NCBI GenBank assembly: GCA_030650025.1
Contig: JAUSEN010000029.1
Location: 287 to 64,286 of the forward strand
Source: Candidatus Magasanikiibacteriota bacterium
GTDB lineage: Bacteria > Patescibacteriota > Patescibacteriia > Magasanikbacterales > GWA2-37-8
DNA: 64,000 nucleotides
Reading direction: 5' to 3'
In this document: piece after piece, positions 2,923 to 52,156 of the stretch
How positions within the stretch are numbered: the first letter of the stretch is position 1
How the letters are laid out: each line of letters starts with the position of its first letter
The notes under the pieces: generated by a model
Told to the model about the DNA's origin: nothing
The model's input: the letters and a program-made list of their open reading frames with translations, nothing else
The model's database searches: none
Position numbers and translations under genes: made by a program

Positions 2923-2930
2923 AAATATTT

Positions 2931-3803: not shown

Positions 3804-3871
3804 TTTTTAGTTGTATGGAGTTCGATAAACACAACCCGCATCCATTTAAAAAATAATTATTTTAATTTTTT

Positions 3872-37366: not shown

Positions 37367-37367
37367 T

Positions 37368-38414
37368 ATGGCTATTAAAATCATCAAAAAAATTCCCAGC
37401 CAAGAGGAAATAGAACAAGCCGCCCCCCTTTCGGCTGTCGGTTACACGGCTATTTTAAAAGATCGTCAGGAAATTTGTGACATTTTATCCGGGAAGGACG
37501 ATCGCCTGCTGTTAATTATTGGACCTTGCTCGGCGTGGCCCTTTGACGCGGTGATTGAATACGCCACTCGTCTAATTTCTTTAAAAAAAGAATTGAATTT
37601 GGAAAAAGAATTTAAAGTTATCATGCGCGTTTATACCCAAAAGCCGCGCACCACTACTGGCTGGAACGGCCCCATTAATCAACCCGATCCGCTGGGCCAA
37701 CCCGATATTGCCGGTGGTATTAAATATACCAGAAAATTAATGGTCCAGCTTATAGAAATGGGTCTGCCCATCGCCAATGAAGCGGTTTTCACTCATGATA
37801 GCATGAAGTTTTTCCCGGATCTACTTTCTTGGATGGCGATTGGCGCGAGGAGCAGTGAAGATCAGGAACATCGCATATACGCTTCGGCGGTTGATTGCCC
37901 GGTCGGAATGAAAAATCCCACCAGTGGATCCATAAAAATCGGCGTTAATAGCATTATCGCGGCGCAAACATCTCAAGTCGCCGTATTTCACGGCCACCAA
38001 ATTGAAAGCAGCGGCAATAAATATGCCCACTTAGTTTTGCGCGGTGGAGAAAGTGGCCCCAATTACGCGACCAAGTTTGTGCTGGAAGCGGGGGACTTAA
38101 TGAAAAAAAATAATATTTTAAATCCGGCTATTATTATTGACGCTAGCCACGATAACTCCAAAGTTGATGGCAAAAAAAATCCTGAACAACAAATTAAGGT
38201 CGTTCAGGAATCAATCGCTGAACTTAAGTCAAACTTGGCTGTAAAAAATTTAGTGAAGGGGTTTATGATCGAAAGTTTTATAAAATCCGGGTCGCAAACA
38301 ATTGATCCGCGTTATCCAGAATCAATTGATCGGGGGGGGCTGTCGGTAACCGATCCCTGTATAAATTGGGAAACAACGGCGGAACTTTTATCGGCAATTT
38401 TTAAAAAAATTTAA
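37368..38414 (+). CDS. DAHP-synthase class I (AroG-type) homolog: 3-deoxy-ulosonate phosphate synthase
   Basis: LLLIIGPCSAWPFDAVIEYA...KVIMRVYTQKPRTTTGWNGPINQPDP closely follows the AroG IGPCS / RVYFEKPRTTVGWKG signature, at about 350 aa. Confidence 0.6.
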   Translation: MAIKIIKKIPSQEEIEQAAPLSAVGYTAILKDRQEICDILSGKDDRLLLIIGPCSAWPFDAVIEYATRLISLKKELNLEKEFKVIMRVYTQKPRTTTGWNGPINQPDPLGQPDIAGGIKYTRKLMVQLIEMGLPIANEAVFTHDSMKFFPDLLSWMAIGARSSEDQEHRIYASAVDCPVGMKNPTSGSIKIGVNSIIAAQTSQVAVFHGHQIESSGNKYAHLVLRGGESGPNYATKFVLEAGDLMKKNNILNPAIIIDASHDNSKVDGKKNPEQQIKVVQESIAELKSNLAVKNLVKGFMIESFIKSGSQTIDPRYPESIDRGGLSVTDPCINWETTAELLSAIFKKI

Positions 38415-38415
38415 T

Positions 38416-39201
38416 ATGTTAACAACCATTGCCATTATTCCCGCCCGTATGGCCTCAAGCCGGTTTCCCGGTAAACCGCTCAAACCAATAGTCGGTATGC
38501 CGATGGTTGGTCATGTTTATAAAAGAACTAAAATGAGCGGGGTAGACGCGGTGTATGTCGCTACTTATGACCAGGCCATTAAAGATTATGTGGAATCAAT
38601 AGGCGGGCAAGCCGTTCTTTTACAGGAAAAATTCGAACGGCCAACGGAATGTACCGCGGCGGCATTGCAAGAGATCGAGAGGGCCACCGGAGAAACGATT
38701 AAAAATATTTTGATGATTCAAGGAGATGAACCGGTAATTTTTCCGGAGACAGTAAATGATTTAGCCGCGGCTGTCAGCCAAAGAGCCAGCGGAGTAGTAA
38801 ATATCGTTAATAATATTCGCGATCGGCAAATTTTTTTAGATAAAAATATTGTTAAAGCCGTTCTTGATCAGCAGGGGAGGATTATCTGGTTTTTTCGTTT
38901 GCCCAGTCTTTTTTGGCAAGAACGTATTGACGAACTTACATCGGTAAAAATTCAGACCGGAATTATTGGTTTTAAGAGAGAGGCCTTGCTTTCTTACGCC
39001 ATGCTTAAATCCACAGATTTTGAAAAGGTCAACTCGGTGGATATGTTTCGCTTTGTGGAACACGGCATTCCCGTGTCAGCGTTGCTTTCTCCGCAGCGCC
39101 TTTATAGCGTTGATACACCCAAAGATCTAGAGTTGGTGAGCGAAATTATGAGTAATGATCCCTTGTTTCAAAAATACAATCAGCATGATAATCGAGGTTA
39201 G
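38416..39201 (+). CDS. KdsB/NeuA-family cytidylyltransferase (CMP-3-deoxy-ulosonate synthetase-like)
   Basis: AIIPARMASSRFPGKPLKPIVGMPMVGHVYKR matches the KdsB N-terminal motif IIPARxxSxRxPGKPL. Confidence 0.65.
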   Translation: MLTTIAIIPARMASSRFPGKPLKPIVGMPMVGHVYKRTKMSGVDAVYVATYDQAIKDYVESIGGQAVLLQEKFERPTECTAAALQEIERATGETIKNILMIQGDEPVIFPETVNDLAAAVSQRASGVVNIVNNIRDRQIFLDKNIVKAVLDQQGRIIWFFRLPSLFWQERIDELTSVKIQTGIIGFKREALLSYAMLKSTDFEKVNSVDMFRFVEHGIPVSALLSPQRLYSVDTPKDLELVSEIMSNDPLFQKYNQHDNRG

Positions 39202-40753
39202 CGTTATTGGCGAAGAGGTGCGTGTAATTGCGGGAAAAATGCAGAAGATTTTTTTTATTCGCGAAAATTTATCTTTGATGTTGGCAAAATTGAAAATGAT
39301 AAATGGTCTTAAATTTAAAAACGGCTCTCCCATCTACGATTCTAGAAAATATGGTTCGATTTCTCTTTGGAGTTTTTTTCAGGATTTTATTTTTTGGAAA
39401 CGATTGTATTTTTTTGTTAGGTTTTCCGAAGTAATTAAATTTATCACGGAGCAAAAATATACTCATATTTTAGTTAATAATCGAGAGTTGGCGGGCGTGC
39501 TACAAATGCTGCCCGGATTGAAGGTAAAATCAAAAAAGAATTTTTTAGCCTATCCCGCGCGATTGGTTTTAAAAGTATTTGGTTTTTTTATAAGTCATTT
39601 GGCAATTTTAATCCTATGGCTAAGAAAAACTCCCTACCTCGTTTATTCTCCGGATATTGCCGTTGGAAAATATGCTTGCGATTTTCGCTTAACCTCACTT
39701 TACGAATTTTTAATGTCGCGAAAAATTAAATTTCAAGAAATATTTCATACTAATATCGGGCTTAATTTTATCAGAAATTTTGTGCGGCGCTGGCGCGGCG
39801 TTTTATACTTGGAATCTTTAGTATTTTTTACCTCCAAAACAGATTTTAATCCTGCGGCGGTATCCTGGCCAAATTTGCCTGATTATGAAAGATTTTTTTT
39901 GGGTTTGGTTTTGAAAGAAGTGGATCGCATGTGTAATCACAGCGCTAAATTAATTAAAAAATTGATATTTATATTTAAGTACAGTAATGTAAAAAAATTG
40001 GCGGCTTTGGATGACATGAGGTACACCAACGAGCTCATTATTGCTTGCCGCGAAAATAGTATCGCCACTTTTGGTTTTCAGCATGGGCAATTTACGAAGT
40101 ATCATATCGGTTGGATGCATTATGATATGCCGCCAGAAAACAGCGTAACCTTTGACACCCTGTTTGTCTGGAATTCCTATTGGCAAAATATTCTTTGCCA
40201 GTATAGTCTTAAATATACCCTAGAGAACACAGCCATTTCGGGGGCACCTAAGAAATTTTTTGGCGAAGTAAAAAAGCGCGATAAACCAGCGTCACCAAAA
40301 AATCTGCTCATTTTATTTGAGTCATTTGTTTCTAAAAACGAAATTCAGCCTTATATCAATCGACTATTGGATTGTGGGTTTGTTTTATATTTAAGTTTGC
40401 GTCCCGACCTGCCTAAAAATGCGCAATTACAGCGTTATGGCTTAGTTGGTAATAATAGTGTGCAAGTGGTAAGTAAATTGGATGCTCAAATTATAAGCGA
40501 GCTTGATGCCGTTGTGGGTGTGCATAGTACGTTACTTAGTGAATTGATGTATTATGATTTGCCGGTTTTTCAAATTGAGTCCAGTTTTGATTTGGGGCAT
40601 CAATTAAGAGATAATTCGCTGTCAATTGCCTTGCCTAAAAATTTTACAACCGAATATATTAATTCGGCGATTGATTCATTCCAGTCAAAAAAGAACGTAG
40701 TTTGGCCATCGGCGCCGTCAATTAACGAAACATATCAAAAAATATTTAGTTAG
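39185..40753 (+). CDS. Hypothetical protein (about 520 aa). Possible glycosyl or ulosonic-acid transferase by context only.
   Basis: Large soluble ORF overlapping the end of the kdsB-like gene. I recognise no motif. The start is set at the ATG at 39185. Confidence 0.3.
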   Translation: MIIEVSVIGEEVRVIAGKMQKIFFIRENLSLMLAKLKMINGLKFKNGSPIYDSRKYGSISLWSFFQDFIFWKRLYFFVRFSEVIKFITEQKYTHILVNNRELAGVLQMLPGLKVKSKKNFLAYPARLVLKVFGFFISHLAILILWLRKTPYLVYSPDIAVGKYACDFRLTSLYEFLMSRKIKFQEIFHTNIGLNFIRNFVRRWRGVLYLESLVFFTSKTDFNPAAVSWPNLPDYERFFLGLVLKEVDRMCNHSAKLIKKLIFIFKYSNVKKLAALDDMRYTNELIIACRENSIATFGFQHGQFTKYHIGWMHYDMPPENSVTFDTLFVWNSYWQNILCQYSLKYTLENTAISGAPKKFFGEVKKRDKPASPKNLLILFESFVSKNEIQPYINRLLDCGFVLYLSLRPDLPKNAQLQRYGLVGNNSVQVVSKLDAQIISELDAVVGVHSTLLSELMYYDLPVFQIESSFDLGHQLRDNSLSIALPKNFTTEYINSAIDSFQSKKNVVWPSAPSINETYQKIFS

Positions 40754-41487: not shown

Positions 41488-42204
41488 ATGAAGCAGTTTT
41501 TGGTTAGATTAAAAAATGATGTCAGCCAGATTTTTGGCTACCCCATATGCGCGTATGGCCAGGATTTTTCGGTTGATTACCAAAAATATTGGGAGCGTCG
41601 CCGCGATAGTGGTACGGCCGTACTAACCGCGTGGCAGAAACAACGCGCGGCTGAGGCTCTTAAAATTATTACTCCCGGCGCCACGGTTATGGACATTGGC
41701 TGTGGCGATGGCGCCATTCTTGATTTCATGCGTTCAGCCTCCCGTATCAAAGGCATCGGTGTCGATATTGATTCATCAATTTTAGAGAGTGCCAAAAAGT
41801 TAGGTGTTCAAACAGTCTGCGCGGATATTAATGATCTTTCCGCTGTCGACGCGTTTCCCGCAGCTGATTATATAATAGCTTTTGAAGTTTTAGAGCATAT
41901 GCCCAGCCCAGAAAGATTTATCGCGCATATTCTCAAGAAGGCTACGCAGGGGCTCATTTTTTCCGTGCCAAACACCGGTTATTACGCGCATCGCTTGCGC
42001 CTGGCGTCTGGTCGTTTTCCTCTCCAATGGGTAGCGCATCCCGGCGAACATCTTCGTTTTTGGACCGTGCGCGATATGCGTTTTTGGGTCGCGTCGCTCG
42101 GTTTAAAAATAGAGAAATTAGTCTTGTATCAGGGTCTGCCTGTTCTCAATAAAATTTTTCCTAAATTATTTAGCCAAGGCATGATTGTTTTTATTAAAAA
42201 ATAA
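41488..42204 (+). CDS. MetW-like class I SAM-dependent methyltransferase
   Basis: Motif I MDIGCGDGAILDF, plus VPNTGYYAHRLRLASGRFPLQWVAHPGEHLRFWTVRDMRFW. Confidence 0.55.
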   Translation: MKQFLVRLKNDVSQIFGYPICAYGQDFSVDYQKYWERRRDSGTAVLTAWQKQRAAEALKIITPGATVMDIGCGDGAILDFMRSASRIKGIGVDIDSSILESAKKLGVQTVCADINDLSAVDAFPAADYIIAFEVLEHMPSPERFIAHILKKATQGLIFSVPNTGYYAHRLRLASGRFPLQWVAHPGEHLRFWTVRDMRFWVASLGLKIEKLVLYQGLPVLNKIFPKLFSQGMIVFIKK

Positions 42205-42208
42205 TTAT

Positions 42209-43675
42209 ATGAAATTATTTTTAATTAACTGGGGTCATCGTGAACCGCTTACCGCGGACATTGCTCATGATTTAGAAACACAAGGTCACCAAGTTTTGTA
42301 TTGGGTGCGTTCTAATAAGAATTTTAGAGTTGATGCTTCAAAATACCCCCATACCATTATTCAGGATTGGAACGATGCCATGGCGTGCCGGGCGCCCCAG
42401 GGGATAGACAAAGAAGCCTTTCCAGTACCCAGTAAAAATTTGCTAGCGCAATTCGCGGCCGAGGAACTTTTGGCTGTTTGCCTGCTCGACCGCGACTACC
42501 CGGAATATTCCGCTACTCAAAAGAGCGAAATTTATCATGATTATTTTCGTTTTTGGTATGGGCTAATTTTTCAAAAAAAGCCTGATGTCATTGTTTTCTC
42601 CGATACCCCGCATCGTGTGGTGGATTTCATGATTTATTCTGTTGCCAAAAAATTAGGTCTGCCGGTTATTTTATTTGGCGCTACAGTCATCGGCGACCGG
42701 AGTTATATCGCCTATGACTACGACCAAGGCTTTACCACGGGGTTTAAGCCCGGTCAAAACGCGCGCCTCGAGAATTTGAGTGTTGACATCGCGCTATATT
42801 ATAAAAATCAAACATCAGGCGCGGTTGATAACACTCCAATTTATATGAAACAGCAGGACGCGTACTTTTCTTGGGCGCGCAAATTAAAACGCAAGCTCAT
42901 GCACGCGCCTCGTCTTTTAGTCAAAATGGACCTCGTCGGACCCTTACAAAGAAATTTGCGTGACCTGGCGACGTATATTGGCTTCGGTGACGATATGATC
43001 AAAAAATATTGTCAACTGCAAAAGCCAGTAGATTACAATAGTAAATATGTCTACGTCCCTCTTCATTATCAACCCGAGCGCACGACTATGCCACAGGGTG
43101 GAGTATTTATGGACCAAATTTTAATGGTGCGTACCGTGGCCGCCGCCTTGCCGGCCGGGTGGAATATCTATGTAAAAGAGCACCGCTCCCAGTGGTATTT
43201 ATCTGGTCGCAGGCCATCTCAATTTCGGGCCTCGGATTATTACGAACGCTTGGCACAAATTCGGAATGTTACTCTTATTTCCGCTAATGAGAGTAGCTTT
43301 AAATTAATTAAAAGCGCCCAGGCAGTTGTAACTGTAACCGGCACCGCGGGTTGGGAATCAGTTCTGCGCAATGTACCGTCGTTAATTTTTGGCGCGCCCT
43401 GGTATCAGGGTTGCCCGGGCACGTTCCGTGTTTCTAGCGTCGAAGACTGTCATCAATTTTTTGCCGATTTGCAATCGGGTTATAAAATTTCTCAACAAGA
43501 AATAATCGATTTTCTTTACTTTATTGATTGCCACACATTTCATGGTTATTTGCAGACATATCAGCATAGTCAAACAAAGTTGACGGAAATAGAAAATAGA
43601 AATAATATCTTGACAATTTTACTGAATGAAATTGAAAAATTATCGCCCCGAAAAGCTTCCGACTGGTTATTTTGA
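42209..43675 (+). CDS. Hypothetical protein (about 490 aa). Possible capsule-type glycosyltransferase by context.
   Basis: Large soluble ORF between the methyltransferase pair and pseB. The start is set at the ATG at 42209. Confidence 0.3.
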   Translation: MKLFLINWGHREPLTADIAHDLETQGHQVLYWVRSNKNFRVDASKYPHTIIQDWNDAMACRAPQGIDKEAFPVPSKNLLAQFAAEELLAVCLLDRDYPEYSATQKSEIYHDYFRFWYGLIFQKKPDVIVFSDTPHRVVDFMIYSVAKKLGLPVILFGATVIGDRSYIAYDYDQGFTTGFKPGQNARLENLSVDIALYYKNQTSGAVDNTPIYMKQQDAYFSWARKLKRKLMHAPRLLVKMDLVGPLQRNLRDLATYIGFGDDMIKKYCQLQKPVDYNSKYVYVPLHYQPERTTMPQGGVFMDQILMVRTVAAALPAGWNIYVKEHRSQWYLSGRRPSQFRASDYYERLAQIRNVTLISANESSFKLIKSAQAVVTVTGTAGWESVLRNVPSLIFGAPWYQGCPGTFRVSSVEDCHQFFADLQSGYKISQQEIIDFLYFIDCHTFHGYLQTYQHSQTKLTEIENRNNILTILLNEIEKLSPRKASDWLF

Positions 43676-43751: not shown

Positions 43752-44738
43752 ATGATTTTGGAATTTTTAAAAGGAAAGTCAGTTTTAGTTACCGGTGGCA
43801 CTGGCTCTTTCGGCCAAAAATTCATTAAAACTTTGCTTGCCAATAGCGCGGCGCGGCGTATTATTATTTTTAGCCGCGACGAATTTAAGCAGTCGGTTAT
43901 GGCCAGTGAGTTATCCGACCCGGAGCGTCGTTTACGATTTTTTTTAGGCGATGTGCGCGACCTTGATCGCCTACAGATGGCTTTCCACGGAGTTGATTAT
44001 GTTATACACGCGGCCGCGCTTAAGCAGGTCCCCCTGCTCGAATACAACCCATTTGAAGCTATCAAAACTAACATTATTGGCACTCAAAATGTTATTACCG
44101 CCGCTATTAACCAGGGAGTCGCTCGGGTGGTGCTTGTTTCAACCGATAAGGCGGCCAACCCGGCGAATCTATATGGCGCCACCAAGCTGTGCGCCGAGCG
44201 TTTGATGATTAGTGGCAATGCTTATGGTGCTCGCCAGACAATTTTCGGAGTCGTGCGATATGGCAATGTCGTTGGGAGCCGCGGGAGCCTAGTTCAGCTT
44301 GTTGAGGATCAACGCAAAACTGGCACGGTCATGCTGACTCATGAAGACATGACCCGATTTTGGATTACGCTTGATCAGGGCGTTAATTTGGTGCTCTTGG
44401 CGCTAGAAAAAATGCATGGCGGCGAAATTTTTATTCCGAAAGTGCCGAGCATGCGCGTCAAGGAATTTTTACAGACTTTTGCTCCAGACGCTAAAATTAA
44501 AATTATGGGTATTCGTCCCGGAGAAAAACTGCATGAAATTTTGGTTACTCCCGAGGAAGCGCGCCATGCCAAAGATTTTGATACTCATTATATTATTTTG
44601 CCGGAACATGCTAATTGGCCGCACCGTGATAAATACGATAAATTAGGCAAAGTCTTGCCCCACGATTTTTATTTTAGCAGTCAAAATAATACCGATTGGC
44701 TTACCGCGGAATCGCTTAAAAAATTATTGGGAATTTAG
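43752..44738 (+). CDS. pseB: UDP-N-acetylglucosamine 4,6-dehydratase (inverting), PseB/FlaA1-like
   Basis: KSVLVTGGTGSFGQKFIKTLL...RIIIFSRDEFKQ...GDVRD...STDKAANPANLYGATKLCAE matches the PseB/CapD short form. Confidence 0.8.
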   Translation: MILEFLKGKSVLVTGGTGSFGQKFIKTLLANSAARRIIIFSRDEFKQSVMASELSDPERRLRFFLGDVRDLDRLQMAFHGVDYVIHAAALKQVPLLEYNPFEAIKTNIIGTQNVITAAINQGVARVVLVSTDKAANPANLYGATKLCAERLMISGNAYGARQTIFGVVRYGNVVGSRGSLVQLVEDQRKTGTVMLTHEDMTRFWITLDQGVNLVLLALEKMHGGEIFIPKVPSMRVKEFLQTFAPDAKIKIMGIRPGEKLHEILVTPEEARHAKDFDTHYIILPEHANWPHRDKYDKLGKVLPHDFYFSSQNNTDWLTAESLKKLLGI

Positions 44739-44741
44739 GCT

Positions 44742-45893
44742 ATGATTATCCCATACGGTAGACAATCCATTGGGGCCGATGATATTGCCGCTGTGGAGGC
44801 GGTGCTCCGATCGGATCGGCTGACCCAAGGGCCCAAGGTGGAAGAGTTCGAGCAGGCGCTTGCCGAGTACTGCGGCGCTCGGTTTGCCGTCGTTACCAGT
44901 AGTGGCACTAGCGCGCTCCATACCGCGTATGCCGCTGTCGGGCTTAGCGCCGGAGATGAAATTATTTCTTCGCCTATTACTTTTCCGGCTACTACTAATG
45001 CCGCGCTTTGGCAGGGCGCTAAGCCAGTATTTGTGGATGTAGAATCAAAAACCGGGAATATCAATGTTGACTTAATTAAAGCCAGCATTACTTCCAAAAC
45101 CAAGGCCATTGTGCCGGTTGATTATACTGGTCGGCCGGTTAATTTGGCTGCCATTAAAAAATTGGCACAGCAGCATAATTTGGTGGTTATTGAAGATGCT
45201 TGCCAGGCGCTCGGCGCAACGTATCACGGCAAAAAAATCGGTTCTATTAGTGATTTAACCGTGTTTAGTTTTCATCCTGTCAAGAGTATTACCACGGGCG
45301 AGGGTGGAGCCGTGCTGACTGACAATGAAAATTGGTACAAAAAAATGAAGATGTTTGTTACCCACGGCGTAACAAAAGCACCGGATAATCTTACGATTTC
45401 TTCCCCCGGTGCTTGGTATTTTGAAATGCAATTATTGGGTAATAATTATCGTTTAACCGACCTACAAGCCGCGCTCGGCATCAGCCAATTAAAAAAGCTT
45501 GATCAGTTTGTGGCTCGCCGTCGTGAATTAGTTACGCGGTATAGCGCCGCCTTAGCAGATCAGGCCGCTATTGTCACTCCGCCGGCTGATTCTACTTCAG
45601 AAGAATCAGCGTGGCACTTGTATGTTATTCAGTTGCAAGGAAAATTATCAGGCCAGCGCGCGGAGATGTTCAAAAAACTGCAAGAGTCTGGGGTTGGAGT
45701 TCAAGTTCATCATATGCTTTCGTATTATCATCCATATTATCAGAAACTTGGGTATTTGCGTGGTGCCTGCCCACGGGCAGAGGCCTGGTACGAATCAATT
45801 ATTTCTTTGCCGCTATATCCTGATTTAACACTGGCGGATCAAGATTATGTCATAAAAACCGTTAAAGATTTCGCAGAAAGCTTGCAAAAATAA
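44742..45893 (+). CDS. pseC: UDP-4-amino-4,6-dideoxy-N-acetyl-beta-L-altrosamine transaminase (PseC-like, DegT family)
   Basis: MIIPYGRQSIGADDIAAVEAVLRSDRLTQGPKVEEFE..., FSFHPVKSITTGEGGAV, and the position directly after pseB. Confidence 0.75.
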   Translation: MIIPYGRQSIGADDIAAVEAVLRSDRLTQGPKVEEFEQALAEYCGARFAVVTSSGTSALHTAYAAVGLSAGDEIISSPITFPATTNAALWQGAKPVFVDVESKTGNINVDLIKASITSKTKAIVPVDYTGRPVNLAAIKKLAQQHNLVVIEDACQALGATYHGKKIGSISDLTVFSFHPVKSITTGEGGAVLTDNENWYKKMKMFVTHGVTKAPDNLTISSPGAWYFEMQLLGNNYRLTDLQAALGISQLKKLDQFVARRRELVTRYSAALADQAAIVTPPADSTSEESAWHLYVIQLQGKLSGQRAEMFKKLQESGVGVQVHHMLSYYHPYYQKLGYLRGACPRAEAWYESIISLPLYPDLTLADQDYVIKTVKDFAESLQK

Positions 45894-45902
45894 AGCTTTT
45901 GT

Positions 45903-46601
45903 ATGGAGAAAAATATTTTGGCAATCATTACCGCTCGGGGCGGCAGCAAGAGAATCCCGCGCAAAAATATTAAATTATTTTTAGGCCAGCCAATTATTAA
46001 ATATTCTATCGGGGCCTCGCTACAAGCTGGTATTTTTGCGGAAGTAATGGTATCTACGGACGATCGCGCCATCGCTGACGTGGCAGAAAGTTCCGGCGCC
46101 ACCGTGCCCTTTTTCCGTTCCGAAAAAAATTCCGGAGACCAGGCCACTACCGCTGATGTCATGCTAGAGGTGCTAGCTGAATATCAAAAACAAGGTAAAA
46201 ATTTTGATTATGTTTGTTGTTTATATCCGACCGCTCCCTTCGTAACCTCGGCCCGGTTGGTTGAAGCAGTAAAGTTATTAGACCAAACTGGTTCGGACGC
46301 CGTGTTGCCAGTAACCCGTTTTAGTTTTCCCATTCAACGAGCGTTAAAAATTGAGAGCAATCTTGTCAAGATGATCTGGCCAGAAAATTTAAATATCCGC
46401 TCGCAAGACTTAATGCCCGCGTATCATGACTGTGGACAATTTTATGCTTTAAATATTAAAAGTTTTTTGGAGCAAAAAAAATTATATATGGATAAAACCG
46501 CGCCGCTTATCATACCTGAGTCCGAAGTGCAAGATATCGACACCGAAGAAGACTGGAAGATTGCGGAAATGAAATATAAAATTTTACAAGCCGGCAAGTA
46601 A
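45903..46601 (+). CDS. pseF: CMP-nonulosonic acid synthetase (PseF/NeuA-family cytidylyltransferase)
   Basis: AIITARGGSKRIPRKNIK matches the acylneuraminate cytidylyltransferase N-terminal motif. Confidence 0.7.
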   Translation: MEKNILAIITARGGSKRIPRKNIKLFLGQPIIKYSIGASLQAGIFAEVMVSTDDRAIADVAESSGATVPFFRSEKNSGDQATTADVMLEVLAEYQKQGKNFDYVCCLYPTAPFVTSARLVEAVKLLDQTGSDAVLPVTRFSFPIQRALKIESNLVKMIWPENLNIRSQDLMPAYHDCGQFYALNIKSFLEQKKLYMDKTAPLIIPESEVQDIDTEEDWKIAEMKYKILQAGK

Positions 46602-46622
46602 ATATTTAATTAAACTAACAGC

Positions 46623-47705
46623 ATGGAGCCAATCGTTATCCAAACTCCAAAAGGAAAAAAGAAAATTGGGCCGGGAGAACCGTGTTTTATTATTGCTGAA
46701 ATGTCTGTGAATCATCAGCAGAATTATGAACAGGCGGCGGAAATTGTGCGCGCGGCGGCGCGCTCTGGTGCTGATGCCATTAAAGTGCAGACGTTTACGC
46801 CGGAGAGCCTCACGATTGATTCTGATAAACGCTGGTTTACACAGCGTAGCCAAGATAACCCGGCCGAGTGGGGCGGGCAGACTCTCTACCAACTATACCA
46901 AAAAGCCACCATGCCCTGGGAGTGGCAGCCCAAGTTACAAAAAATTGCCCACGAAGAGGGTATAGTATTTTTTTCTACGCCCCAAGACCAAGCCTCGGTT
47001 GATTTTTTGGAAACGTTACAGGTGCCGTGCTATAAAGTTGCGTCGTACGAAGCAGTGGATATTTCTTTGTTGCATATGGTGGCAAGAACCAAAAAGCCGG
47101 TTATTTTATCGGTGGGTTTTGCGACGCAGGACGAAATTAAAGAGGCGGTCCAGGCTTTGCGTTCAGGCGGCGGGGGCGATATCGCGCTCCTCCATTGCCT
47201 TACCTCATACGCAGACAACTCTGACTATGTTACCGCTAATTTGCGCACCATGCAGGATTTGCAAAAGCAGTACGGTGTGGTAGTCGGGTTTTCCGATAAC
47301 AATGGCGGCATAGAAATTCCCGTAATGGCGGTGACTGCCGGCGCCGCGATTGTTGAGAAGCACTTGGTGCTCGAACACGGCACCGGCGCGCTTGATGATA
47401 GGTTTTCTCTGTCAGTTGATGAGTTTGGCGAAATGGTAAAACGCATTCGTCGTGCTGAAGCAATTTTAGGCGCAGTGCATTATGGGCCGCAGAATGATTT
47501 TGAAAAACAGAATCTTTATTTTCGGCGGTCTTTATTCGTGGTCGAAGCCATTAAAAAAGGAGAGGTGTTTACTTTAAAAAATGTTCGTTCGATACGCCCC
47601 TCGCACGGCCTGCCGCCCAGCGAACTCGATAAAATTATTGGCAAAACCGCGGCCTGCGATATCGAGCGCGGCACGCCGCTAAACTGGGAAATAGTGTCTA
47701 GGTAA
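46623..47705 (+). CDS. pseI: Nonulosonic acid synthase (PseI/NeuB family) with a C-terminal SAF domain
   Basis: CFIIAEMSVNHQQNYEQAAEIVRAAARSGADAIKVQTF matches the NeuB N-terminal motif. The C-terminal about 60 aa (FTLKNVRSIRPSHGL) is SAF-like. Confidence 0.75.
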   Translation: MEPIVIQTPKGKKKIGPGEPCFIIAEMSVNHQQNYEQAAEIVRAAARSGADAIKVQTFTPESLTIDSDKRWFTQRSQDNPAEWGGQTLYQLYQKATMPWEWQPKLQKIAHEEGIVFFSTPQDQASVDFLETLQVPCYKVASYEAVDISLLHMVARTKKPVILSVGFATQDEIKEAVQALRSGGGGDIALLHCLTSYADNSDYVTANLRTMQDLQKQYGVVVGFSDNNGGIEIPVMAVTAGAAIVEKHLVLEHGTGALDDRFSLSVDEFGEMVKRIRRAEAILGAVHYGPQNDFEKQNLYFRRSLFVVEAIKKGEVFTLKNVRSIRPSHGLPPSELDKIIGKTAACDIERGTPLNWEIVSR

Positions 47706-47709
47706 TTGT

Positions 47710-48678
47710 ATGAGCCACCCCGCTATTAAAAATATTCTTATCACCTGCGCCGGCGGCAGTGGGCCGTTGTATTTGGCTAAACAACTTAAGAAAAAAGGGT
47801 ACCACGTGTACCTCTCTGACGGCAGCAACGAGTCGATAGCTCGGTTTTTGGGTTTTCCGTTTGCTCTCATGCCGTTTGGCAATAGCCAGCAATACCTGCC
47901 GGCTGTAAAAGACCTGATTCGTCGCTGGAATATACAATGTATTGTGCCGGGCGCGGATGAAGAATTGTTAGCAGTTGCAAAATTGTGTGAAGAGATTCCT
48001 CATTTACAAGCAGTACTTCCACGCAAAGATTTTATTGCGGCCTGCCTTAATAAAAAAGAGTTAATGAAACGTTTAGCGAAGCTGTCAATTTCTTCTTTAC
48101 TGTCTTTTGCCACGCGGCGCTCGGTTGCGTACCCGGCCGCTGTTAAGCCTATGTACGGCCGCGGATCCCGTGGGTTCCACATTGTTCATAATAGCCGGCA
48201 GTTAGCCGGTTATCTGGCGTTATACAATAAAAAATTCAGCGAGCTGGTAGTGCAGCCGTATATTGCCGGTGACGAATACACGGTTTCGGTAATTGTAAAT
48301 AATAAGAATCAATTGTTAGCAATAGTCTGCAAGAAAATCTTGCTCAAGCGCGGCATAACCAAGGCGGCGGTGGTGGTTAAAAATAATGTCATCGATCGCG
48401 TATGCCGAATGATTGTTAAAAAAATGTCGCCTGGCGGTCCCTTTAACGTGCAGTTAAAGCTGTATAAAGGCAAGGTTTATATTTTTGAGATTAATCCTCG
48501 GTTGTCAACAACCTCGGTGTTAACCGACCAAGCTTGTGGCAATGAGGTTGAGCTGTATATCCATAGTTTTAATCGCGCGGTTATTAAAAAGCAACTCCCG
48601 GTACAGAGTGGCATTTTTTTGTATCGATACGAAGAAAATTTTTTTAAGTTTTCACGAACCAAGCTAAAACGCGTATGA
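47710..48678 (+). CDS. ATP-grasp domain protein (carboxylate-amine ligase-like)
   Basis: AVKPMYGRGSRGFHIV...ELVVQPYIAGDEYTVSVI...YIFEINPRLSTT follows the ATP-grasp pattern. Confidence 0.55.
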   Translation: MSHPAIKNILITCAGGSGPLYLAKQLKKKGYHVYLSDGSNESIARFLGFPFALMPFGNSQQYLPAVKDLIRRWNIQCIVPGADEELLAVAKLCEEIPHLQAVLPRKDFIAACLNKKELMKRLAKLSISSLLSFATRRSVAYPAAVKPMYGRGSRGFHIVHNSRQLAGYLALYNKKFSELVVQPYIAGDEYTVSVIVNNKNQLLAIVCKKILLKRGITKAAVVVKNNVIDRVCRMIVKKMSPGGPFNVQLKLYKGKVYIFEINPRLSTTSVLTDQACGNEVELYIHSFNRAVIKKQLPVQSGIFLYRYEENFFKFSRTKLKRV

Positions 48679-49532
48679 AGGTACTCTTGATCGGCGGTTC
48701 GCGCTTTACCGGCCCGGCCATTGTCGCCGAATTGCTTAAAAAAAATTACGAGGTGACGGTTTTTAATCGCGGTAATATTACCGAAAGGCACGACCCCAAG
48801 GTTCGCTTTATTAAAGGGGATCGCAACAGCGGGTTTAACCTCCGTGATCATTTTGATGCGGTAATCGACACTTGCGCGTACACCAAAGAGCAGATCAAGC
48901 GGTCACTCGGCGAATTACAGTTCGATTATTATCTATTCGTAAGTACGGCAGCAGTGTATCGCAAAACGCACGTTTTTCCTTTAACCGAAGTCAATTCGCC
49001 GCGCGGGCCCTGGCCTGTGTGGGGGGAATATAGTGCGAGAAAAATTGAGTGTGAAGAAGCGCTCGAGCACAGCGGCGCGGCGCATGCGATTGTTCGCCCG
49101 GTATATATTTTAGGCCCGCACAATCCGGTTGATCGCGAAAATTTTATTTATTCTCGGTTAAGAAACAACACCCCACTCACACTGCCGGGTAATGGATCAG
49201 CCATCATTCAGTTTATTTTTGTGCAGGATATCGCTCGGATCTACGCAAGGTTAGTTGAACAAAAAATTACCGGCATTTTTAATTGCGCTGGCTCCGAAGG
49301 TATTACCTTAATTGGCTTAGTTGAGGAAATGGCGCGTATCGTGGGGGTACCACCCCAGATTGAATTTAACCCGGCCGCTGATGGTGACAAATTTGACGAG
49401 CGTCAATTCCCTTTTGCGAATGAAAATTTTTTTTGTGATAACATCAAACTCAAGCAACTTGGTTTTACCCCCAGCTCGCTCATAACAGGATTGCGTCAAG
49501 ATTACGTTGGCTACTATCGAGATTTTCGTTAA
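48675..49532 (+). CDS. NAD(P)-dependent oxidoreductase (atypical SDR/NmrA-like)
   Basis: MKVLLIGGSRFTGPAIVAELLKKNYEVTVFNRG is a Rossmann N-terminus. Confidence 0.5.
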   Translation: MKVLLIGGSRFTGPAIVAELLKKNYEVTVFNRGNITERHDPKVRFIKGDRNSGFNLRDHFDAVIDTCAYTKEQIKRSLGELQFDYYLFVSTAAVYRKTHVFPLTEVNSPRGPWPVWGEYSARKIECEEALEHSGAAHAIVRPVYILGPHNPVDRENFIYSRLRNNTPLTLPGNGSAIIQFIFVQDIARIYARLVEQKITGIFNCAGSEGITLIGLVEEMARIVGVPPQIEFNPAADGDKFDERQFPFANENFFCDNIKLKQLGFTPSSLITGLRQDYVGYYRDFR

Positions 49533-49542
49533 AGATTAGCGC

Positions 49543-50241
49543 GTGAGTATGTATTTTATTGGCGACGTTCACAACAATATTCAAGAACTTAAGAAACTAC
49601 TGGCAACCCTCAATTTATCAGGCGGAGCCGAGCTCGTTTTTTTAGGTGACTACATTGACAAAAATACTTCAACCCAGGAAACCGTAGAGTTTCTCCTTTC
49701 GCTTTGCCAAGAGTATCACTGTGTCTTTCTCAAAGGGAATCACGATTTTGTATGGGACAGGTACCTTAACCATCAGGAGTACGCGCGGCAGGAGTTTCTC
49801 CTCAAGTACGGTTCAGCAGAATCTTTGCGGCAGTACAGTGGTTCCCCCGAGGTTTTAATTAAAAATAATGATGTCGCCGCGATCAAAGTTTTTTTCCGAG
49901 ACTACTTGAAACTTCTAGCGCTCACGCAGGATTATTTTCTAGCCGATTCATATCTGGCGGTTCACGCCGGGCTGTCGCCGGACCAGCTTAATCAGCAGCC
50001 GCTCGTTTGGAGCGAACTTAACTATTTTTTACGACCCAAGCGCATGGTGCTGGATAAAAAATATCTCGGTACCCATGCCGTAGTGGCCGGTCACACTTTT
50101 TTGTCAGACACCCCGACTATTTATCCCGGGTATATCAACGTCGATTTAGGGGCTGGATATGGCCAGTACCTGGGCGCTTTGAGCACGGAAGACAACGCCG
50201 TTATAAGATCAGATGGAAAAATATTTACTCTTAATATTTAA
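49543..50241 (+). CDS. Calcineurin-like metallophosphoesterase
   Basis: GDVHNN, LVFLGDYIDKN and FLKGNHDF correspond to the GDxHG / GDxxDRG / GNH(D/E) metal-binding motifs. Confidence 0.65.
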   Translation: MSMYFIGDVHNNIQELKKLLATLNLSGGAELVFLGDYIDKNTSTQETVEFLLSLCQEYHCVFLKGNHDFVWDRYLNHQEYARQEFLLKYGSAESLRQYSGSPEVLIKNNDVAAIKVFFRDYLKLLALTQDYFLADSYLAVHAGLSPDQLNQQPLVWSELNYFLRPKRMVLDKKYLGTHAVVAGHTFLSDTPTIYPGYINVDLGAGYGQYLGALSTEDNAVIRSDGKIFTLNI

Positions 50242-50244
50242 AAT

Positions 50245-50916
50245 ATGAAGTCAAAAATTTTGGTTGTTGCCGCTCATCCGGATGATGAGCTCCTTGGAGT
50301 TGGGGGAACAGTGGCGTATCACAGCGGAAAAGGGGATAGCGTGTATGCTCTTATTTTAGGGCAAGGAGCATTATCGCGAAGCGGAGCCAAACCAGCCGCA
50401 GTTACTAAATTGCACGAACAGGCCAAACAGGCCAGCAAGATAATTGGATTTAGAGAAGTTTTTTTTGCAGATTTTCCTGACAATGCCTTTGATTCCGTAA
50501 GTTTACTTACGATTACTCAGGAGGTCGAAAAGTATCTTACCAAGATTGCGCCAGACCGAGTGTATACTCATCATGAATATGATCTCAATATTGATCACCG
50601 ACTAACTTTCCAGGCTGTCCTTACTGCCTGCCGGCCTTGCAATCAGTATTGCCCGCGCGAACTGTACACGTTCGAGACACTTTCTTCCACAGAATGGCAG
50701 AGTAAAGATCATAAACAGTTTCAACCAACAGTGTATCAAGATATTACCGCTACTATTGGTACAAAGTTAAAAGCCTTAGCCTGCTATGCCGGTGAAATGC
50801 GCTCATATCCGCACCCACGTTCGTTAGAAGGAGCGAAAATTTTGGCTCAATGTCGAGGATTAGAAGTACAGCTTAAATACGCTGAAGCTTTTCATTTAAT
50901 AAGGAAGATTCAATAA
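50245..50916 (+). CDS. PIG-L/LmbE-family N-deacetylase
   Basis: ILVVAAHPDDELLGVGGTVA is the signature HPDDE zinc-binding N-terminus. Confidence 0.7.
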   Translation: MKSKILVVAAHPDDELLGVGGTVAYHSGKGDSVYALILGQGALSRSGAKPAAVTKLHEQAKQASKIIGFREVFFADFPDNAFDSVSLLTITQEVEKYLTKIAPDRVYTHHEYDLNIDHRLTFQAVLTACRPCNQYCPRELYTFETLSSTEWQSKDHKQFQPTVYQDITATIGTKLKALACYAGEMRSYPHPRSLEGAKILAQCRGLEVQLKYAEAFHLIRKIQ

Positions 50917-50924
50917 AGTAAAGT

Positions 50925-51521
50925 ATGGAAGCTGCTGATCAATTGCAAGAAATGTTGGAAAACGAGGCGCCTAGTCGGAGCGATGCTATTGTTTGGTTAC
51001 AAGGCGATCAATATGATCGAGGCAAAAAAGTGTTCGAGTTATACCAAGAAAAATTTGCGCCGCGGATTATTATAACTGGAAATGATGAATTGATTGGCCA
51101 AGGGAAGCGTTTTGAAGAGAGTAATATTTCACTTAATGCCATGCGTAGTTGGTTGCTAGCCCGGGGGGTAGCGCCGCCAGATATTACCGTTGATGCTGAT
51201 CCGCTCAATACGCGCGAACAAGCCGAGCACGTTATCCAACTTGCCAAAAAAAATGATTGGCGCCAGCTAATATTAGTTGGCTCTATATATTATCAAATGC
51301 GTGCTTTCCTAACTTTTTTAAAGTACGCTAAAGAAAGTGACTGGACGGGACGCATTTTGAATCAGATGGCAAAAATTAAGTGGGACGATGTACCAAGCGG
51401 ACGTCAACAAACCGCTCGGACGTATTTTTTGGTTGACAAGAAAAAAATTGAGCAGTATCGAGCGCACGTCGCGCCCGTCGCCGAGGGGATTGCTTATTTA
51501 AAATCACGCCGAAGCATATGA
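50925..51521 (+). CDS. DUF218/YdcF-like domain protein
   Basis: IVWLQGDQYDRG...RIIITGN...GVAPPDITVDADPLNTREQAEH follows the YdcF/ElyC pattern. Confidence 0.45.
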   Translation: MEAADQLQEMLENEAPSRSDAIVWLQGDQYDRGKKVFELYQEKFAPRIIITGNDELIGQGKRFEESNISLNAMRSWLLARGVAPPDITVDADPLNTREQAEHVIQLAKKNDWRQLILVGSIYYQMRAFLTFLKYAKESDWTGRILNQMAKIKWDDVPSGRQQTARTYFLVDKKKIEQYRAHVAPVAEGIAYLKSRRSI

Positions 51522-52156
51522 TAATTAATCTACTCACTGATAATCCACAAAGTTGGATTATCCCATACGTTAAGCAGGCAGCAGAAGAATTGCGTTCTCT
51601 TGGCCACACGGTATATTTTGTCCACAATCAAAAAGATATTGTGGCGGGAGACTGCGCCTTTTTTTTGGGGTGTGAAAAACTAGTAAAATCCGAGACGCTC
51701 AAAAAAAATAAACACAATCTTGTAATTCATGAAAGCGCTCTGCCCGCGGGCAAGGGTTGGTCGCCGCTCACCTGGCAAATTTTAGATGGAAAAAATGACA
51801 TACCCGTGTCGCTGTTTGAAGCGGAAGCGGCAGTTGATAACGGCCCGATTTATTTTCAGGACACGCTTCATTTTGCGGGGTATGAATTAAATAAAGAATT
51901 GAAAGAGGCCCAGGGGCGACTATCAATAGAGTTAGTTAAGCGTTTTGTTCTCGCCTACCCGGCGATTACTGGGCAGAGGCAGGCTGGCGCCGCGACTTTT
52001 TATTCGCGGCGCACTCCTAAAGACAGCGAATTAGACGTAAACAAAACAATCGCCGAGCAATTTAATTTGTTCCGAGTTGTTGATAATGAAAACTACCCCG
52101 CTTTTTTCAATCACCTCGGCCATAAATATATAATAAAAATATACAAATTCGAATAA
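51518..52156 (+). CDS. Formyltransferase (sugar N-formyltransferase-like, Fmt/PurN fold)
   Basis: NLVIHESALPAGKGWSPLTWQILDG matches the formyltransferase catalytic motif (HxSLLPxxxG). Confidence 0.6.
   Translation: MIINLLTDNPQSWIIPYVKQAAEELRSLGHTVYFVHNQKDIVAGDCAFFLGCEKLVKSETLKKNKHNLVIHESALPAGKGWSPLTWQILDGKNDIPVSLFEAEAAVDNGPIYFQDTLHFAGYELNKELKEAQGRLSIELVKRFVLAYPAITGQRQAGAATFYSRRTPKDSELDVNKTIAEQFNLFRVVDNENYPAFFNHLGHKYIIKIYKFE

Follow-up and report, generated by a model that had tools for sequence, protein, structure and literature searches.

A pseudaminic acid gene cluster of a Candidatus Magasanikiibacteriota bacterium with candidate replacements for PseG and PseH

In the canonical pseudaminic acid (Pse) pathway of Campylobacter jejuni and Helicobacter pylori, PseB-PseC-PseH-PseG-PseI-PseF, a GNAT acetyltransferase (PseH) acylates the sugar nucleotide and a GT-B (GT28-like) hydrolase (PseG) frees the sugar from UDP. 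The locus described here, found in a 64-kb stretch of a MAG (the window), encodes PseB, PseC, PseI and PseF orthologs in clustered genes and inferred chemistry of the same sugar backbone, but neither PseH nor PseG. This raises the question of which proteins carry out the two steps. With moderate confidence we favour a Pse operon in which a formyltransferase and a DUF218 protein replace PseH and PseG, accompanied by a tailoring module. Two textbook steps would then apparently be performed by non-homologous enzymes in an uncultured, ultra-small (CPR) bacterium; as the Pse pathway itself is known, both the substitution and the module are variations on it.

An operon-like pse cluster lacking pseG and pseH in the window

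The cluster consists of ten tightly packed genes, all on the + strand (43752-52156), and each open reading frame was confirmed at the coordinates given here. Candidatus Magasanikbacteria MAG proteins from a 73,229-bp contig match three of the encoded proteins at 100% identity. Gaps range from -4 to +21 bp, with 4-bp overlaps at the ATP-grasp/SDR and DUF218/formyltransferase gene pairs, making the array operon-like. Families were assigned by Pfam and NCBIfam scans, using the NCBIfam equivalog cut-offs, and about 50 related loci served for comparison. The first four genes encode PseB, the inverting UDP-GlcNAc 4,6-dehydratase (43752..44738; TIGR03589, 439 bits vs cut-off 408; Polysacc_synt_2, 317 bits), the PLP-dependent aminotransferase PseC, producing UDP-4-amino-4,6-dideoxy-L-AltNAc (44742..45893; TIGR03588, 484 bits vs 423), the CMP-pseudaminic acid synthetase PseF (45903..46601; TIGR03584, 293 bits vs 206) and the pseudaminic acid synthase PseI with NeuB and SAF domains (46623..47705; TIGR03586, 404 bits vs 340). 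The original prediction had listed dehydratase, aminotransferase, synthase and CMP-synthetase in this order. All four are present above their equivalog cut-offs, but the order is pseB-pseC-pseF-pseI, with the cytidylyltransferase preceding the synthase. We are confident that these core steps are orthodox.

The pse cluster forms the distal end of a surface-polysaccharide locus of about 36 kb that includes Wzx, a Wzy-like protein and GT4 glycosyltransferases, and thus differs from pse genes in a flagellin island. Directly upstream, also on the + strand, lies a gene for a 496 aa KpsS/Capsule_synth-like protein (42185..43675; Pfam Capsule_synth, E 1.3e-7). Homologs of this protein are encoded after PseI in eight related loci (L003, L009, L079, L086, L013, L062, L066 and L090), and KpsS1 is the predicted Pse transferase of Acinetobacter K loci. 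The upstream protein is likely a CMP-Pse-dependent glycosyltransferase.

The absence of PseG and PseH from the cluster, predicted originally, holds for the entire 64-kb window. Pfam and NCBIfam scans, which covered the ORFs of 150 aa or more at 24.5-63 kb and ten ORFs at 0.7-24.4 kb, detected no GT28 or GNAT domain, tblastn searches of the whole window with seven PseG and five PseH-like sequences of relatives produced only noise, and a PseG profile, applied without filters to all six-frame ORFs of 70 aa or longer, gave zero matches. Together with the equivalog-level PseB, PseC, PseF and PseI, this bears out a Pse-type nonulosonic acid cluster without PseG and PseH. Since the window covers 64 kb of a MAG, pseG or pseH could sit elsewhere in the incomplete genome; the pathway would then be an ordinary one, with the formyltransferase, the DUF218 protein and the other accessory proteins as tailoring or regulatory extras. 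However, in every PseG-containing relative pseG is located inside the cluster, and CPR genomes are small and gene-poor. Including the evidence presented below, we consider an ordinary pathway rather unlikely.

Candidates for the PseG step

Two cluster proteins come into question for sugar release. The original prediction had tentatively assigned this step to the metallophosphoesterase g7 (49543..50241; Metallophos), acting as a UDP-sugar pyrophosphatase like LpxH, whereas the DUF218/YdcF-family protein g9 (50925..51521; DUF218, 47.5 bits vs cut-off 27.6) was correctly recognised and left without a role. If g7 replaced PseG, g9 would be an unrelated accessory protein. Some metallophosphoesterases, e.g. 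LpxH, do hydrolyse nucleotide-diphosphate linkages, and LpxH shares the calcineurin-like metallophosphoesterase character of g7. Moreover, ApaH was among the structural matches of g7, ApaH/PrpE families were among its weak NCBIfam matches, and in about eight loci that contain the enzyme, PseG and DUF218 are both missing from the 10 kb to either side.

Fold and genomic behaviour of g7 nevertheless argue against UDP-sugar cleavage. The protein belongs to a distinct family comprising about 68 clusters, mainly from Patescibacteria. Foldseek searches with its AlphaFold2 model (pLDDT 96) returned RLPH2, lambda phosphatase, the Pnkp phosphatase and PP1 as top matches, while LpxH was not among the top 50. 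A profile search against the PDB agreed, placing g7 in the PPP (lambda-phosphatase/ApaH) phosphomonoesterase branch. Furthermore, nine loci encode both a g7 homolog and an authentic PseG, in one case as a PseG-PseH fusion within an island for flagellin glycosylation, and g7 homologs are missing from PseG-less pse clusters (L090, L091, L092 and L096). The invariable partner of the g7 gene is the ATP-grasp gene, not the genes for PseH or PseI: in all related loci the two lie side by side or with just an SDR gene between them, and g7 is an obligate partner of the ATP-grasp gene. In addition, a pyrophosphatase would leave a sugar-1-phosphate and hence require a further phosphatase. We therefore rejected g7 as a PseG substitute, a role that we judge improbable.

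The DUF218 protein appears better suited. In the loci chosen solely via the metallophosphoesterase, PseG was found in nine and DUF218 in ten, both in none, and neither in the eight or so mentioned above (naive Fisher p 0.009, a statistic that ignores phylogenetic non-independence). The loci with neither gene imply that the hydrolase can be encoded elsewhere or supplied otherwise. The four PseG-less clusters devoid of the metallophosphoesterase gene were all selected via DUF218. Regarding gene position, the DUF218 gene sits between the PseC and PseI genes in L005, immediately precedes the PseI gene in L062 and L080, and adjoins a PseH or formyltransferase gene in the window, L002, L006, L011 and L067/68.

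Gene fusions follow the same pattern. The 150 best-ranking representatives of the family, taken from clusters at 50% identity, included 26 DUF218 fusions. In 24 of these the partner is a GNAT with homology to the PseH half of PseG-PseH fusions; the other two carry a g10-type formyltransferase (50% identity) and PseC (53% identity), respectively. Strict exclusivity of PseG and DUF218 over the 19 informative loci, combined with a fusion repertoire copying that of PseG, would not be expected if DUF218 were a mere tailoring enzyme, and thus speaks against an ordinary pathway with a distant pseG.

The AlphaFold2 model of g9 (pLDDT 95) adopts the nucleotide-binding Rossmann-like fold of E. coli YdcF, its best PDB match (3ca8), and R32, R126, T96, Q99 and S120 are invariant. 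To our knowledge, no catalytic activity is known for any DUF218 member. For two E. coli family members, SanA and ElyC, an enzymatic role on sugar-diphosphate-lipid intermediates of the cell envelope has been proposed (PMC12176290). YdcF has been described as SAM-binding (PDB 3ca8 title; PMC12176290), and within an ordinary pathway DUF218 might accordingly act as a SAM-dependent modifier. Although g9 shares Pfam family and fold with YdcF, SanA and ElyC, it is a soluble, cytoplasmic protein of 198 aa from a distinct subfamily of nonulosonic acid (NulO) clusters, and its structural alignment with YdcF showed an identity of no more than about 12%. For SanA a Thr/His/Glu triad has been proposed, whose His is not a conserved residue of the g9 subfamily; g9 has Tyr-Tyr at this place. 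Altogether, exclusivity, gene position and fusions suggest that DUF218 is a better PseG substitute than the metallophosphoesterase and the leading candidate for the absent hydrolase.

A formyltransferase as candidate PseH equivalent

The last gene of the cluster encodes the 212 aa formyltransferase g10 (51518..52156), overlapping the DUF218 gene by 4 bp. Matches to Formyl_trans_N in Pfam were weak (29 bits) and ArnA-like matches in NCBIfam reached 54 bits. Across 31 homologs, neither the catalytic His and Asp nor the HxSxLPxGxG motif varies (H71, S73, L75, P76, G78, G80 and D107).

Several associations support the originally predicted N-formyl donor function. Two Desulfospira genomes (L019 and L021) encode fusions of an N-terminal PseG to a C-terminal formyltransferase that is 52% identical to g10, an architecture matching that of the PseG-PseH fusions in L001, L003 and L009. 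All these fusions join the N4-acylation step to UDP release in one protein; in the window DUF218 takes the place of PseG as the hydrolase partner and is encoded by a separate gene, which overlaps the g10 gene by 4 bp. A DUF218-formyltransferase fusion (P0308) has a formyltransferase half 50% identical to g10. Moreover, two pse loci of cultured Clostridia (L093 and L094) contain a g10-type formyltransferase (56-61% identical) and no GNAT. A PseH-like GNAT and a formyltransferase occur together in L002, L013, L016 and L067/68, which is in line with an ordinary pathway and implies that the formyltransferase does not always replace PseH. In the window, where formyltransferase and DUF218 occupy the genomic and fusion positions of PseH and PseG, the formyltransferase plausibly acts in place of PseH and supplies the missing N-acylation.

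A proposed tailoring module and the predicted product

The four genes between pseI and the DUF218 gene have no counterpart in the canonical pathway. The ATP-grasp protein (47710..48678) is a carboxylate-amine ligase of the PRK12767 'CPS-like' type (ATPgrasp_Ter, ATP-grasp_3 and PRK12767-like matches in Pfam and NCBIfam); its family profile matched 2pn1 in the PDB (1e-25), followed by CPS, Ddl/VanA, PurK, L-amino-acid ligase and PurT. The SDR (48675..49532; 285 aa; Epimerase family), previously called atypical, turned out to be an extended SDR with the nucleotide motif GGSRFTG and a conserved T91/Y119/K123 triad, which suggests that it is probably active. These three residues and G7, G8 and G13 are invariant in ten orthologs. 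The SDR is a variable member of the set and occurs in roughly half of the loci; others have a different type of SDR or an aldo-keto reductase in its place, the latter in L086 and L010. The PIG-L/LmbE-family de-N-acetylase (50245..50916; PIG-L, 91 bits) retains AHPDDE (residues 10-15), D117-H118 and H190 in all 16 orthologs.

The six accessory genes could in principle belong to an unrelated operon merely abutting pseBCFI, a general possibility that the comparative data already contradict. A PIG-L and a NeuB homolog are encoded within a few kb of the ATP-grasp/metallophosphoesterase pair, and about 40 independent loci from Patescibacteria, Omnitrophota, Clostridia, Planctomycetia, Desulfobacterota, Bacteroidota and one archaeal MAG have the set next to homologs of NeuB/PseI and PseB/C. 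Across these loci (at least seven phyla) accessory and pse genes are intermingled in varying orders, and in the window they are joined by overlaps and gaps of at most 10 bp. An unrelated operon is thus highly improbable, confirming the original assignment of the accessory genes to the cluster. We infer that ATP-grasp, SDR, phosphatase and PIG-L form a separate conserved tailoring module, in which PIG-L and ATP-grasp plausibly perform an N-acyl swap.

These assignments rest on observed gene content, family membership, catalytic-motif conservation, co-occurrence and fusions; the enzymatic activities, step order and acyl group of the pathway that they yield are all predictions. PseB and PseC would convert UDP-GlcNAc to UDP-4-amino-4,6-dideoxy-L-AltNAc, whose C4 amine (the future N7) would be N-formylated by g10, and g9 would free the sugar from UDP; the g9/g10 gene overlap may allow translational coupling. 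The 2-N-acetyl group, at what becomes N5 of Pse, would be cleaved off by PIG-L, and the ATP-grasp enzyme would link a carboxylic acid to the freed amine by an amide bond. Phosphatase and SDR would process this acyl group or the sugar; in a speculative version, the phosphatase would dephosphorylate a phospho-acid such as phosphoglycerate. A simple ATP-grasp amide ligation needs no phosphatase, which counts against the explanation favoured here. Finally, PseI would condense the released hexose with PEP and PseF would activate the product with CTP, giving a CMP-Pse with a 7-N-formyl and a non-acetyl 5-N-acyl group that is probably transferred by the upstream KpsS-like protein.

A comparable combination of NulO genes with a de-N-acetylase and a formyltransferase is reported for Ca. 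Kuenenia stuttgartiensis, whose cluster is Leg-type rather than Pse-type and whose gene assignments are likewise inferred (SugarBase preprint, bioRxiv 10.64898/2026.04.20.719630). Term counts found 'ATP-grasp', 'metallophosphoesterase' and 'PIG-L' absent from that preprint, which reports mass-spectrometric observation of CMP-NulOs whose two amines are free in one case and formylated in the other. Among the loci compared here, a second formyltransferase accompanies PIG-L in L094 and L096.

Gene content of the pse cluster and its surroundings

Ten open reading frames (ORFs) running in the same direction fill positions 43752-52156, with intergenic gaps of -4 to +21 bp and 4-bp overlaps at two pairs, ATP-grasp/SDR and DUF218/formyltransferase. 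Four of the products scored above the NCBIfam cut-offs for enzymes of the pseudaminic acid (Pse) pathway: the inverting UDP-GlcNAc 4,6-dehydratase PseB (TIGR03589, 439.2 bits vs. a cut-off of 407.75), the aminotransferase PseC (TIGR03588, 484.4 vs. 423.5), the cytidylyltransferase PseF (TIGR03584, 292.9 vs. 205.7) and the synthase PseI with its NeuB and SAF domains (TIGR03586, 403.7 vs. 340.25). In the best-supported model these four enzymes are orthodox. Their genes are arranged in the order B-C-F-I, not B-C-I-F, which corrects the original prediction that the synthase precedes the CMP-synthetase. The remaining genes encode an ATP-grasp protein of the PRK12767 'carbamoyl-phosphate-synthase-like' type matching multiple ATP-grasp Pfam families, an SDR of the Epimerase family and a calcineurin-like metallophosphoesterase, g7 (both by Pfam/NCBIfam), the PIG-L deacetylase g8 (PF02585, 91 bits), the DUF218 protein g9 (PF02698, 47.5 bits vs. 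a cut-off of 27.6), and the short formyltransferase (FMT) g10 (Formyl_trans_N, 29 bits vs. a Pfam cut-off of 26.1; 54 bits with the ArnA model).

Neither the GT-B-type UDP-sugar hydrolase PseG nor the GNAT N-acetyltransferase PseH was detected in the window. Domain scans of the ORFs ≥150 aa in the 24.5-63 kb interval and of ten ORFs from 0.7-24.4 kb revealed no GT28 (Glyco_tran_28_C) or GNAT domain, tblastn of seven PseG and five PseH-like sequences of relatives against the window gave only noise, and a PseG HMM applied with filters off to all six-frame window ORFs of at least 70 aa found no match. The observation of a Pse-type cluster devoid of PseG and PseH is thus confirmed within the window. 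The cluster is real and more than a routine pse cluster, representing a variation on the known Pse pathway.

The cluster forms the distal end of a polysaccharide locus of about 36 kb, in which a Wzy_C/TPR protein beginning at 22419 is followed by several GT4 glycosyltransferases, DegT aminotransferases, GDP-mannose-dehydratase-type enzymes and methyltransferases. Downstream of the cluster, the opposite strand encodes a Wzx-like flippase, an AsnB-like amidotransferase and a GT4 glycosyltransferase, beyond which UDP-sugar dehydrogenases are found on the + strand. A KpsS/Capsule_synth-like protein is encoded directly upstream of pseB (42185-43675). Since KpsS-like homologs come after PseI in many relatives, this protein is probably the Pse transferase.

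Within the same glycan locus, a HAD phosphatase, a class-I DAHP synthase (TIGR00034, 287 bits vs. a cut-off of 173) and a KdsB-like cytidylyltransferase scoring below its family cut-off are encoded consecutively (36719-39201, +), followed by a 532-aa protein without family match (39155-40753) and two methyltransferases. For a CPR genome, this row looks more like a route to a CMP-activated sugar of 3-deoxy-heptulosonic (DAH/Kdo-like) type than one to aromatic amino acids; none of the related loci showed a DAHP synthase homolog. Elsewhere in the window, a single ORF upstream of dnaK and dnaJ (2931-3803, +) joins an N-terminal NUDIX hydrolase to a C-terminal GrpE domain, and ORFs of 405, 581 and 1242 aa (11416-12633, +; 13799-15544, -; 18536-22264, +) gave zero Pfam matches at E ≤1e-6.

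Related loci and the metallophosphoesterase

About 50 related loci were obtained from GTDB genomes and JGI metagenomes in scans with an alignment as query, and their ORFs were compared by BLAST, jackhmmer and hmmsearch. An alignment was required at this step, as a single-sequence scan of genome contigs with g7 recovered zero relatives. Looking up g7, g8 and the protein P0001 by exact sequence likewise gave no match. The g7 family is sharply bounded, comprising about 68 clusters with 43-59% identity, beyond which scores fall below 90 bits. In every locus with a true g7 ortholog the ATP-grasp gene is adjoining or separated only by an SDR gene, and PIG-L and a NeuB/PseI homolog are located within a few kb, usually together with PseB and PseC. 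Hosts of this module are Patescibacteria (Peribacteria, Komeilibacteria, Chisholmbacteria, Saccharibacteria and Paceibacterota), two 'Gammaproteobacteria' MAGs and one archaeal MAG, while a more distant g7 group with 26-32% identity occurs in Omnitrophota, Clostridia, Planctomycetia, Desulfospira and Flavobacteriaceae. The archaeal occurrence, a 3,060-bp contig labelled 'archaeon' which carries PIG-L, ATP-grasp, SDR and metallophosphoesterase (L014), could reflect misbinning or may be due to horizontal transfer of the module. An assignment of the accessory genes to an unrelated operon in relatives was not borne out: the module stays beside NeuB/PseI across these loci, which implies that it is part of the nonulosonic acid (NulO) system and not of an abutting operon.

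The original prediction had assigned to g7 an LpxH-analogous UDP-sugar step, i.e. the role of PseG. Nine distinct loci carry PseG together with the phosphoesterase. One of these, the flagellin-glycosylation island L001 on a 4.77-Mb contig, encodes a PseG-PseH fusion plus a g7-type phosphoesterase in the order PseB-PseC-PseF, amidotransferase set, PseG-PseH fusion, PseI, methyltransferase, ATP-grasp, metallophosphoesterase, PIG-L, Maf protein and flagellin. Moreover, four pse clusters (L090, L091, L092 and L096) are devoid of both PseG and the phosphoesterase. The g7 family profile matched PPP-type structures in the PDB (Pnkp phosphatase domain, RLPH2, PP2A and PP1), and the nearest folds to the AlphaFold2 model of g7 (pLDDT 96) were RLPH2, lambda phosphatase, the Pnkp phosphatase domain, PP1 and ApaH, with LpxH absent from the top 50 fold matches. 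As a PPP-type protein that coexists with PseG in some loci and is missing from several PseG-less clusters, g7 is most probably not the PseG substitute, and the LpxH-like step appears to have been misassigned. ORFs labelled PseH that precede the g7-type gene in two loci (L079 and L086) were also considered as hidden PseG-PseH fusions and dismissed, as they comprise only 157-160 aa; the gene following the ~160-aa ORF in L086 encodes an aldo-keto reductase.

The DUF218 protein as candidate for the PseG step

Pfam scans of unassigned ORFs from PseG-less loci repeatedly detected DUF218 (L005, L011 and L013). In L005 the DUF218 gene is situated between PseC and PseI, and in L013, a Paceibacterota pse locus, DUF218 is fused to a GFO/IDH/MocA oxidoreductase (2434-4059, +). 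Stand-alone GFO/IDH/MocA genes adjoin DegT aminotransferase genes in L020 and L091. A subfamily profile added DUF218 proteins in L062, L067/68, L077 and L080/88. Among loci picked solely via the phosphoesterase, nine carried PseG, ten DUF218, none both, and about eight neither within reach, a mutual exclusivity with a naive Fisher p of 0.009 that ignores phylogeny. An independent sample of the DUF218 subfamily was collected via g9 itself, and all members examined were encoded in pse clusters without PseG. Examples are PseB-PseC-PseF-PseI-methyltransferase-DUF218 with an acetamidino gene set and the gene of a KpsS-like protein next in line (L090), PseB, carbamoyltransferase and NeuB followed by DUF218 (L091), and PseB-PseC ... 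DUF218-GNAT-PseF-PseI (L092).

HMMER, run exhaustively against 1.84 billion representatives, yielded 171 matches to the DUF218 subfamily at E ≤1e-30. Among the best 150 of these 171 representatives, 28 are at least 320 aa long, and 24 of the long proteins are fusions of DUF218 and GNAT in both domain orders. One further long protein carries a formyltransferase half 50% identical to g10 (P0308), and another a DegT half 53% identical to the PseC of the window (P0333). Homology (E down to 1e-28) links the GNAT halves of the DUF218 fusions to the PseH portions of PseG-PseH fusion proteins. One DUF218-GNAT fusion is encoded in a further Magasanikbacteria pse cluster (L096), after PseB-PseC-GNAT ... 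PseI-FMT2-PIG-L. Thus, DUF218 shares the neighbours and fusion partners of PseG, and the two are mutually exclusive; a role as generic neighbour was rejected on the basis of the fusion and exclusivity patterns. Altogether, strong comparative evidence suggests that g9 takes over the role of PseG.

Foldseek identified E. coli YdcF (PDB 3ca8, E 1.5e-6) as best match to the AlphaFold2 model of g9 (pLDDT 95), followed by generic nucleotide-binding Rossmann-like folds. PseG was absent from the top 50 fold matches, implying that the replacement would be non-homologous. The sequence profile of the subfamily gave only noise against the PDB, YdcF being recovered solely by fold. R32, R126, T96, Q99 and S120 are invariant in the subfamily. 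A Thr/His/Glu triad was proposed for SanA, and SanA and ElyC themselves are proposed to be enzymes acting on peptidoglycan and ECA intermediates (PMC12176290). Judged by motif and not by an alignment to SanA, the Thr of this triad would correspond to the invariant T96, and 33 of 35 sequences have E or D at position 98; where the His would be expected, again judged by motif, the subfamily is not conserved and has H or Y, with YY in the window protein. In the literature found, no enzymatic activity was assigned to DUF218, and our literature search retrieved no report linking DUF218 or YdcF to pseudaminic acid or PseG. If DUF218 is a hydrolase, the released sugar would be the 6-deoxy-altrosamine precursor, detached from UDP. 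This would be the first biochemical activity for DUF218, and it would suggest that SanA and ElyC hydrolyse sugar-diphosphate (undecaprenyl-PP-linked) envelope intermediates. The large family that includes these E. coli envelope factors hence has a concrete biochemical hypothesis.

One further locus with a GNAT-DUF218 fusion (L095) encodes a 510-aa NeuB-family synthase fused to a cupin domain (8097-9629, +) and two B12-binding radical SAM proteins.

The formyltransferase and a proposed N-acyl tailoring module

Two Desulfospira genomes encode PseG-FMT fusions of 573 or 582 aa (L019:10725-12446, -; L021:10735-12483, -), in which the part after PseG shares 52% identity with g10. This architecture matches the PseG-PseH fusions of three other loci (L001, L003 and L009). 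With 978 matches the g10 family is large, and its members are typically stand-alone proteins of about 212 aa. Across 31 homologs, residues H71, S73, L75, P76, G78, G80 and D107 do not vary; His71, Asp107 and the HxSxLPxGxG motif of g10 agree with the catalytic His and Asp and the HxSLLPxxxG-type folate motif of N10-formyl-THF-dependent formyltransferases (PurN/Fmt/ArnA and sugar N-formyltransferases). The Asn usually located two residues before the catalytic His is instead found at -4 in g10 (N67, nearly invariant).

In cultured Clostridia, g10 homologs with 56-61% identity are encoded in flagellin pse loci of Crassaminicella indica (L093, CP078093) and Clostridiaceae bacterium M8S5 (L094, CP118523). 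Both loci comprise PseB/C/F/I, PseG, PIG-L and two different formyltransferases, the second beside or near PIG-L, and zero GNAT. This arrangement suggests a division of labour, with the C4 amine as target of one formyltransferase and re-acylation of the PIG-L-exposed amine by the other; the expected sugar is a pseudaminic acid that is di-N-formylated or carries formyl and another acyl group. In Ca. Kuenenia, CMP-NulOs with one amine formylated and one free were reported, and its legionaminic acid (Leg)-type cluster combines a deacetylase with a formyltransferase (2026 preprint, bioRxiv 10.64898/2026.04.20.719630). The proposed N-formylation is supported by the PseG-FMT fusions and the GNAT-free Clostridia loci, with the formyltransferase as PseH stand-in, and in the best-supported model g10 would take over the role of PseH.

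The other accessory proteins retain the hallmarks of their families. In PIG-L, the zinc-binding/catalytic motif AHPDDE (10-15) and, downstream of it, D117-H118 and H190 are invariant in 16 orthologs, and the SDR of the window conserves the T/Y/K triad and the glycine-rich nucleotide motif. The ATP-grasp profile best matched the uncharacterised CPS-like structure 2pn1 in the PDB, followed by CPS, Ddl/VanA, PurK, L-amino-acid ligase and PurT, and the family has 36 invariant columns, including K146, E189, E260 and N262, in keeping with the conserved nucleotide- and Mg-binding residues of the ATP-grasp fold. By these profile matches, the window protein is a carboxylate-amine ligase. PIG-L enzymes de-N-acetylate 2-acetamido sugars. 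For loci combining PseH, PIG-L and ATP-grasp, an economical reading is that PIG-L would free the 2-amine (the future N5) and ATP-grasp would re-acylate it. The ATP-grasp ligase is always accompanied by the PPP-type phosphatase and often by a reductase, either SDR or aldo-keto reductase (L086 and L010). We speculate that a phosphorylated acid is ligated and then dephosphorylated, e.g. phosphoglycerate giving N-glyceroyl. Alternatively, the sugar may undergo redox tailoring or epimerisation, by analogy to EpaA/EpaB in Acinetobacter. Our literature search found no study combining pseudaminic acid with ATP-grasp and deacetylase, and the accessory module is absent from the Clostridium, Geobacillus, Shewanella and Tannerella papers found.

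Pseudaminic acids are present on flagella, pili, capsules and LPS, and they influence recognition by hosts and phages. NulO types are predicted from genomes on the basis of their pathway, which is taken to be an invariable route of six enzymes. A widespread subset of clusters, here mostly from CPR/Patescibacteria, appears to use a DUF218 hydrolase and a formyltransferase as N-acylating enzyme, so that pipelines requiring PseG and PseH miss such clusters or call them incomplete. In the proposed mechanism, g10 would replace PseH, N-acylation occurring by formyl, g9 would act in place of PseG, and PIG-L, ATP-grasp, phosphatase and SDR would act together as a conserved module for N-acyl tailoring. 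This model predicts that the CPR cell surface carries a pseudaminic acid with formyl on N7 and an acyl group other than acetyl on N5. Tentatively, and as a reading nearly as probable as its opposite, we propose that DUF218 is a PseG-unrelated UDP-sugar hydrolase in many PseG-less pathways and that the module adds an undescribed 5-N-acyl group to the sugar displayed on CPR surfaces. This would point to an uncharacterised four-gene tailoring module in CPR bacteria, and would imply that these ultra-small episymbionts devote resources to a complex surface sugar resembling sialic acid, with bearing on host-cell interaction.

Two further gene sets were observed inside pse clusters. PEP-utilising-enzyme proteins adjoin ATP-grasp genes in L011 (7715-9046, +) and L008 (3790-6095, -); they contain the PEP-binding domain, in some cases together with the mobile His domain, like a split PEP synthase/PPDK, and may supply PEP for PseI or mediate phosphotransfer. 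Two unrelated loci (L007:11822-14329, +; L092:1292-4088, +) harbor an ATP-citrate lyase/citryl-CoA synthetase-like trio composed of an ATP-grasp_2 and Citrate_bind protein, a CoA-ligase protein and a citrate-synthase C-terminal-domain protein, which may be the source of an unusual acyl-CoA donor.
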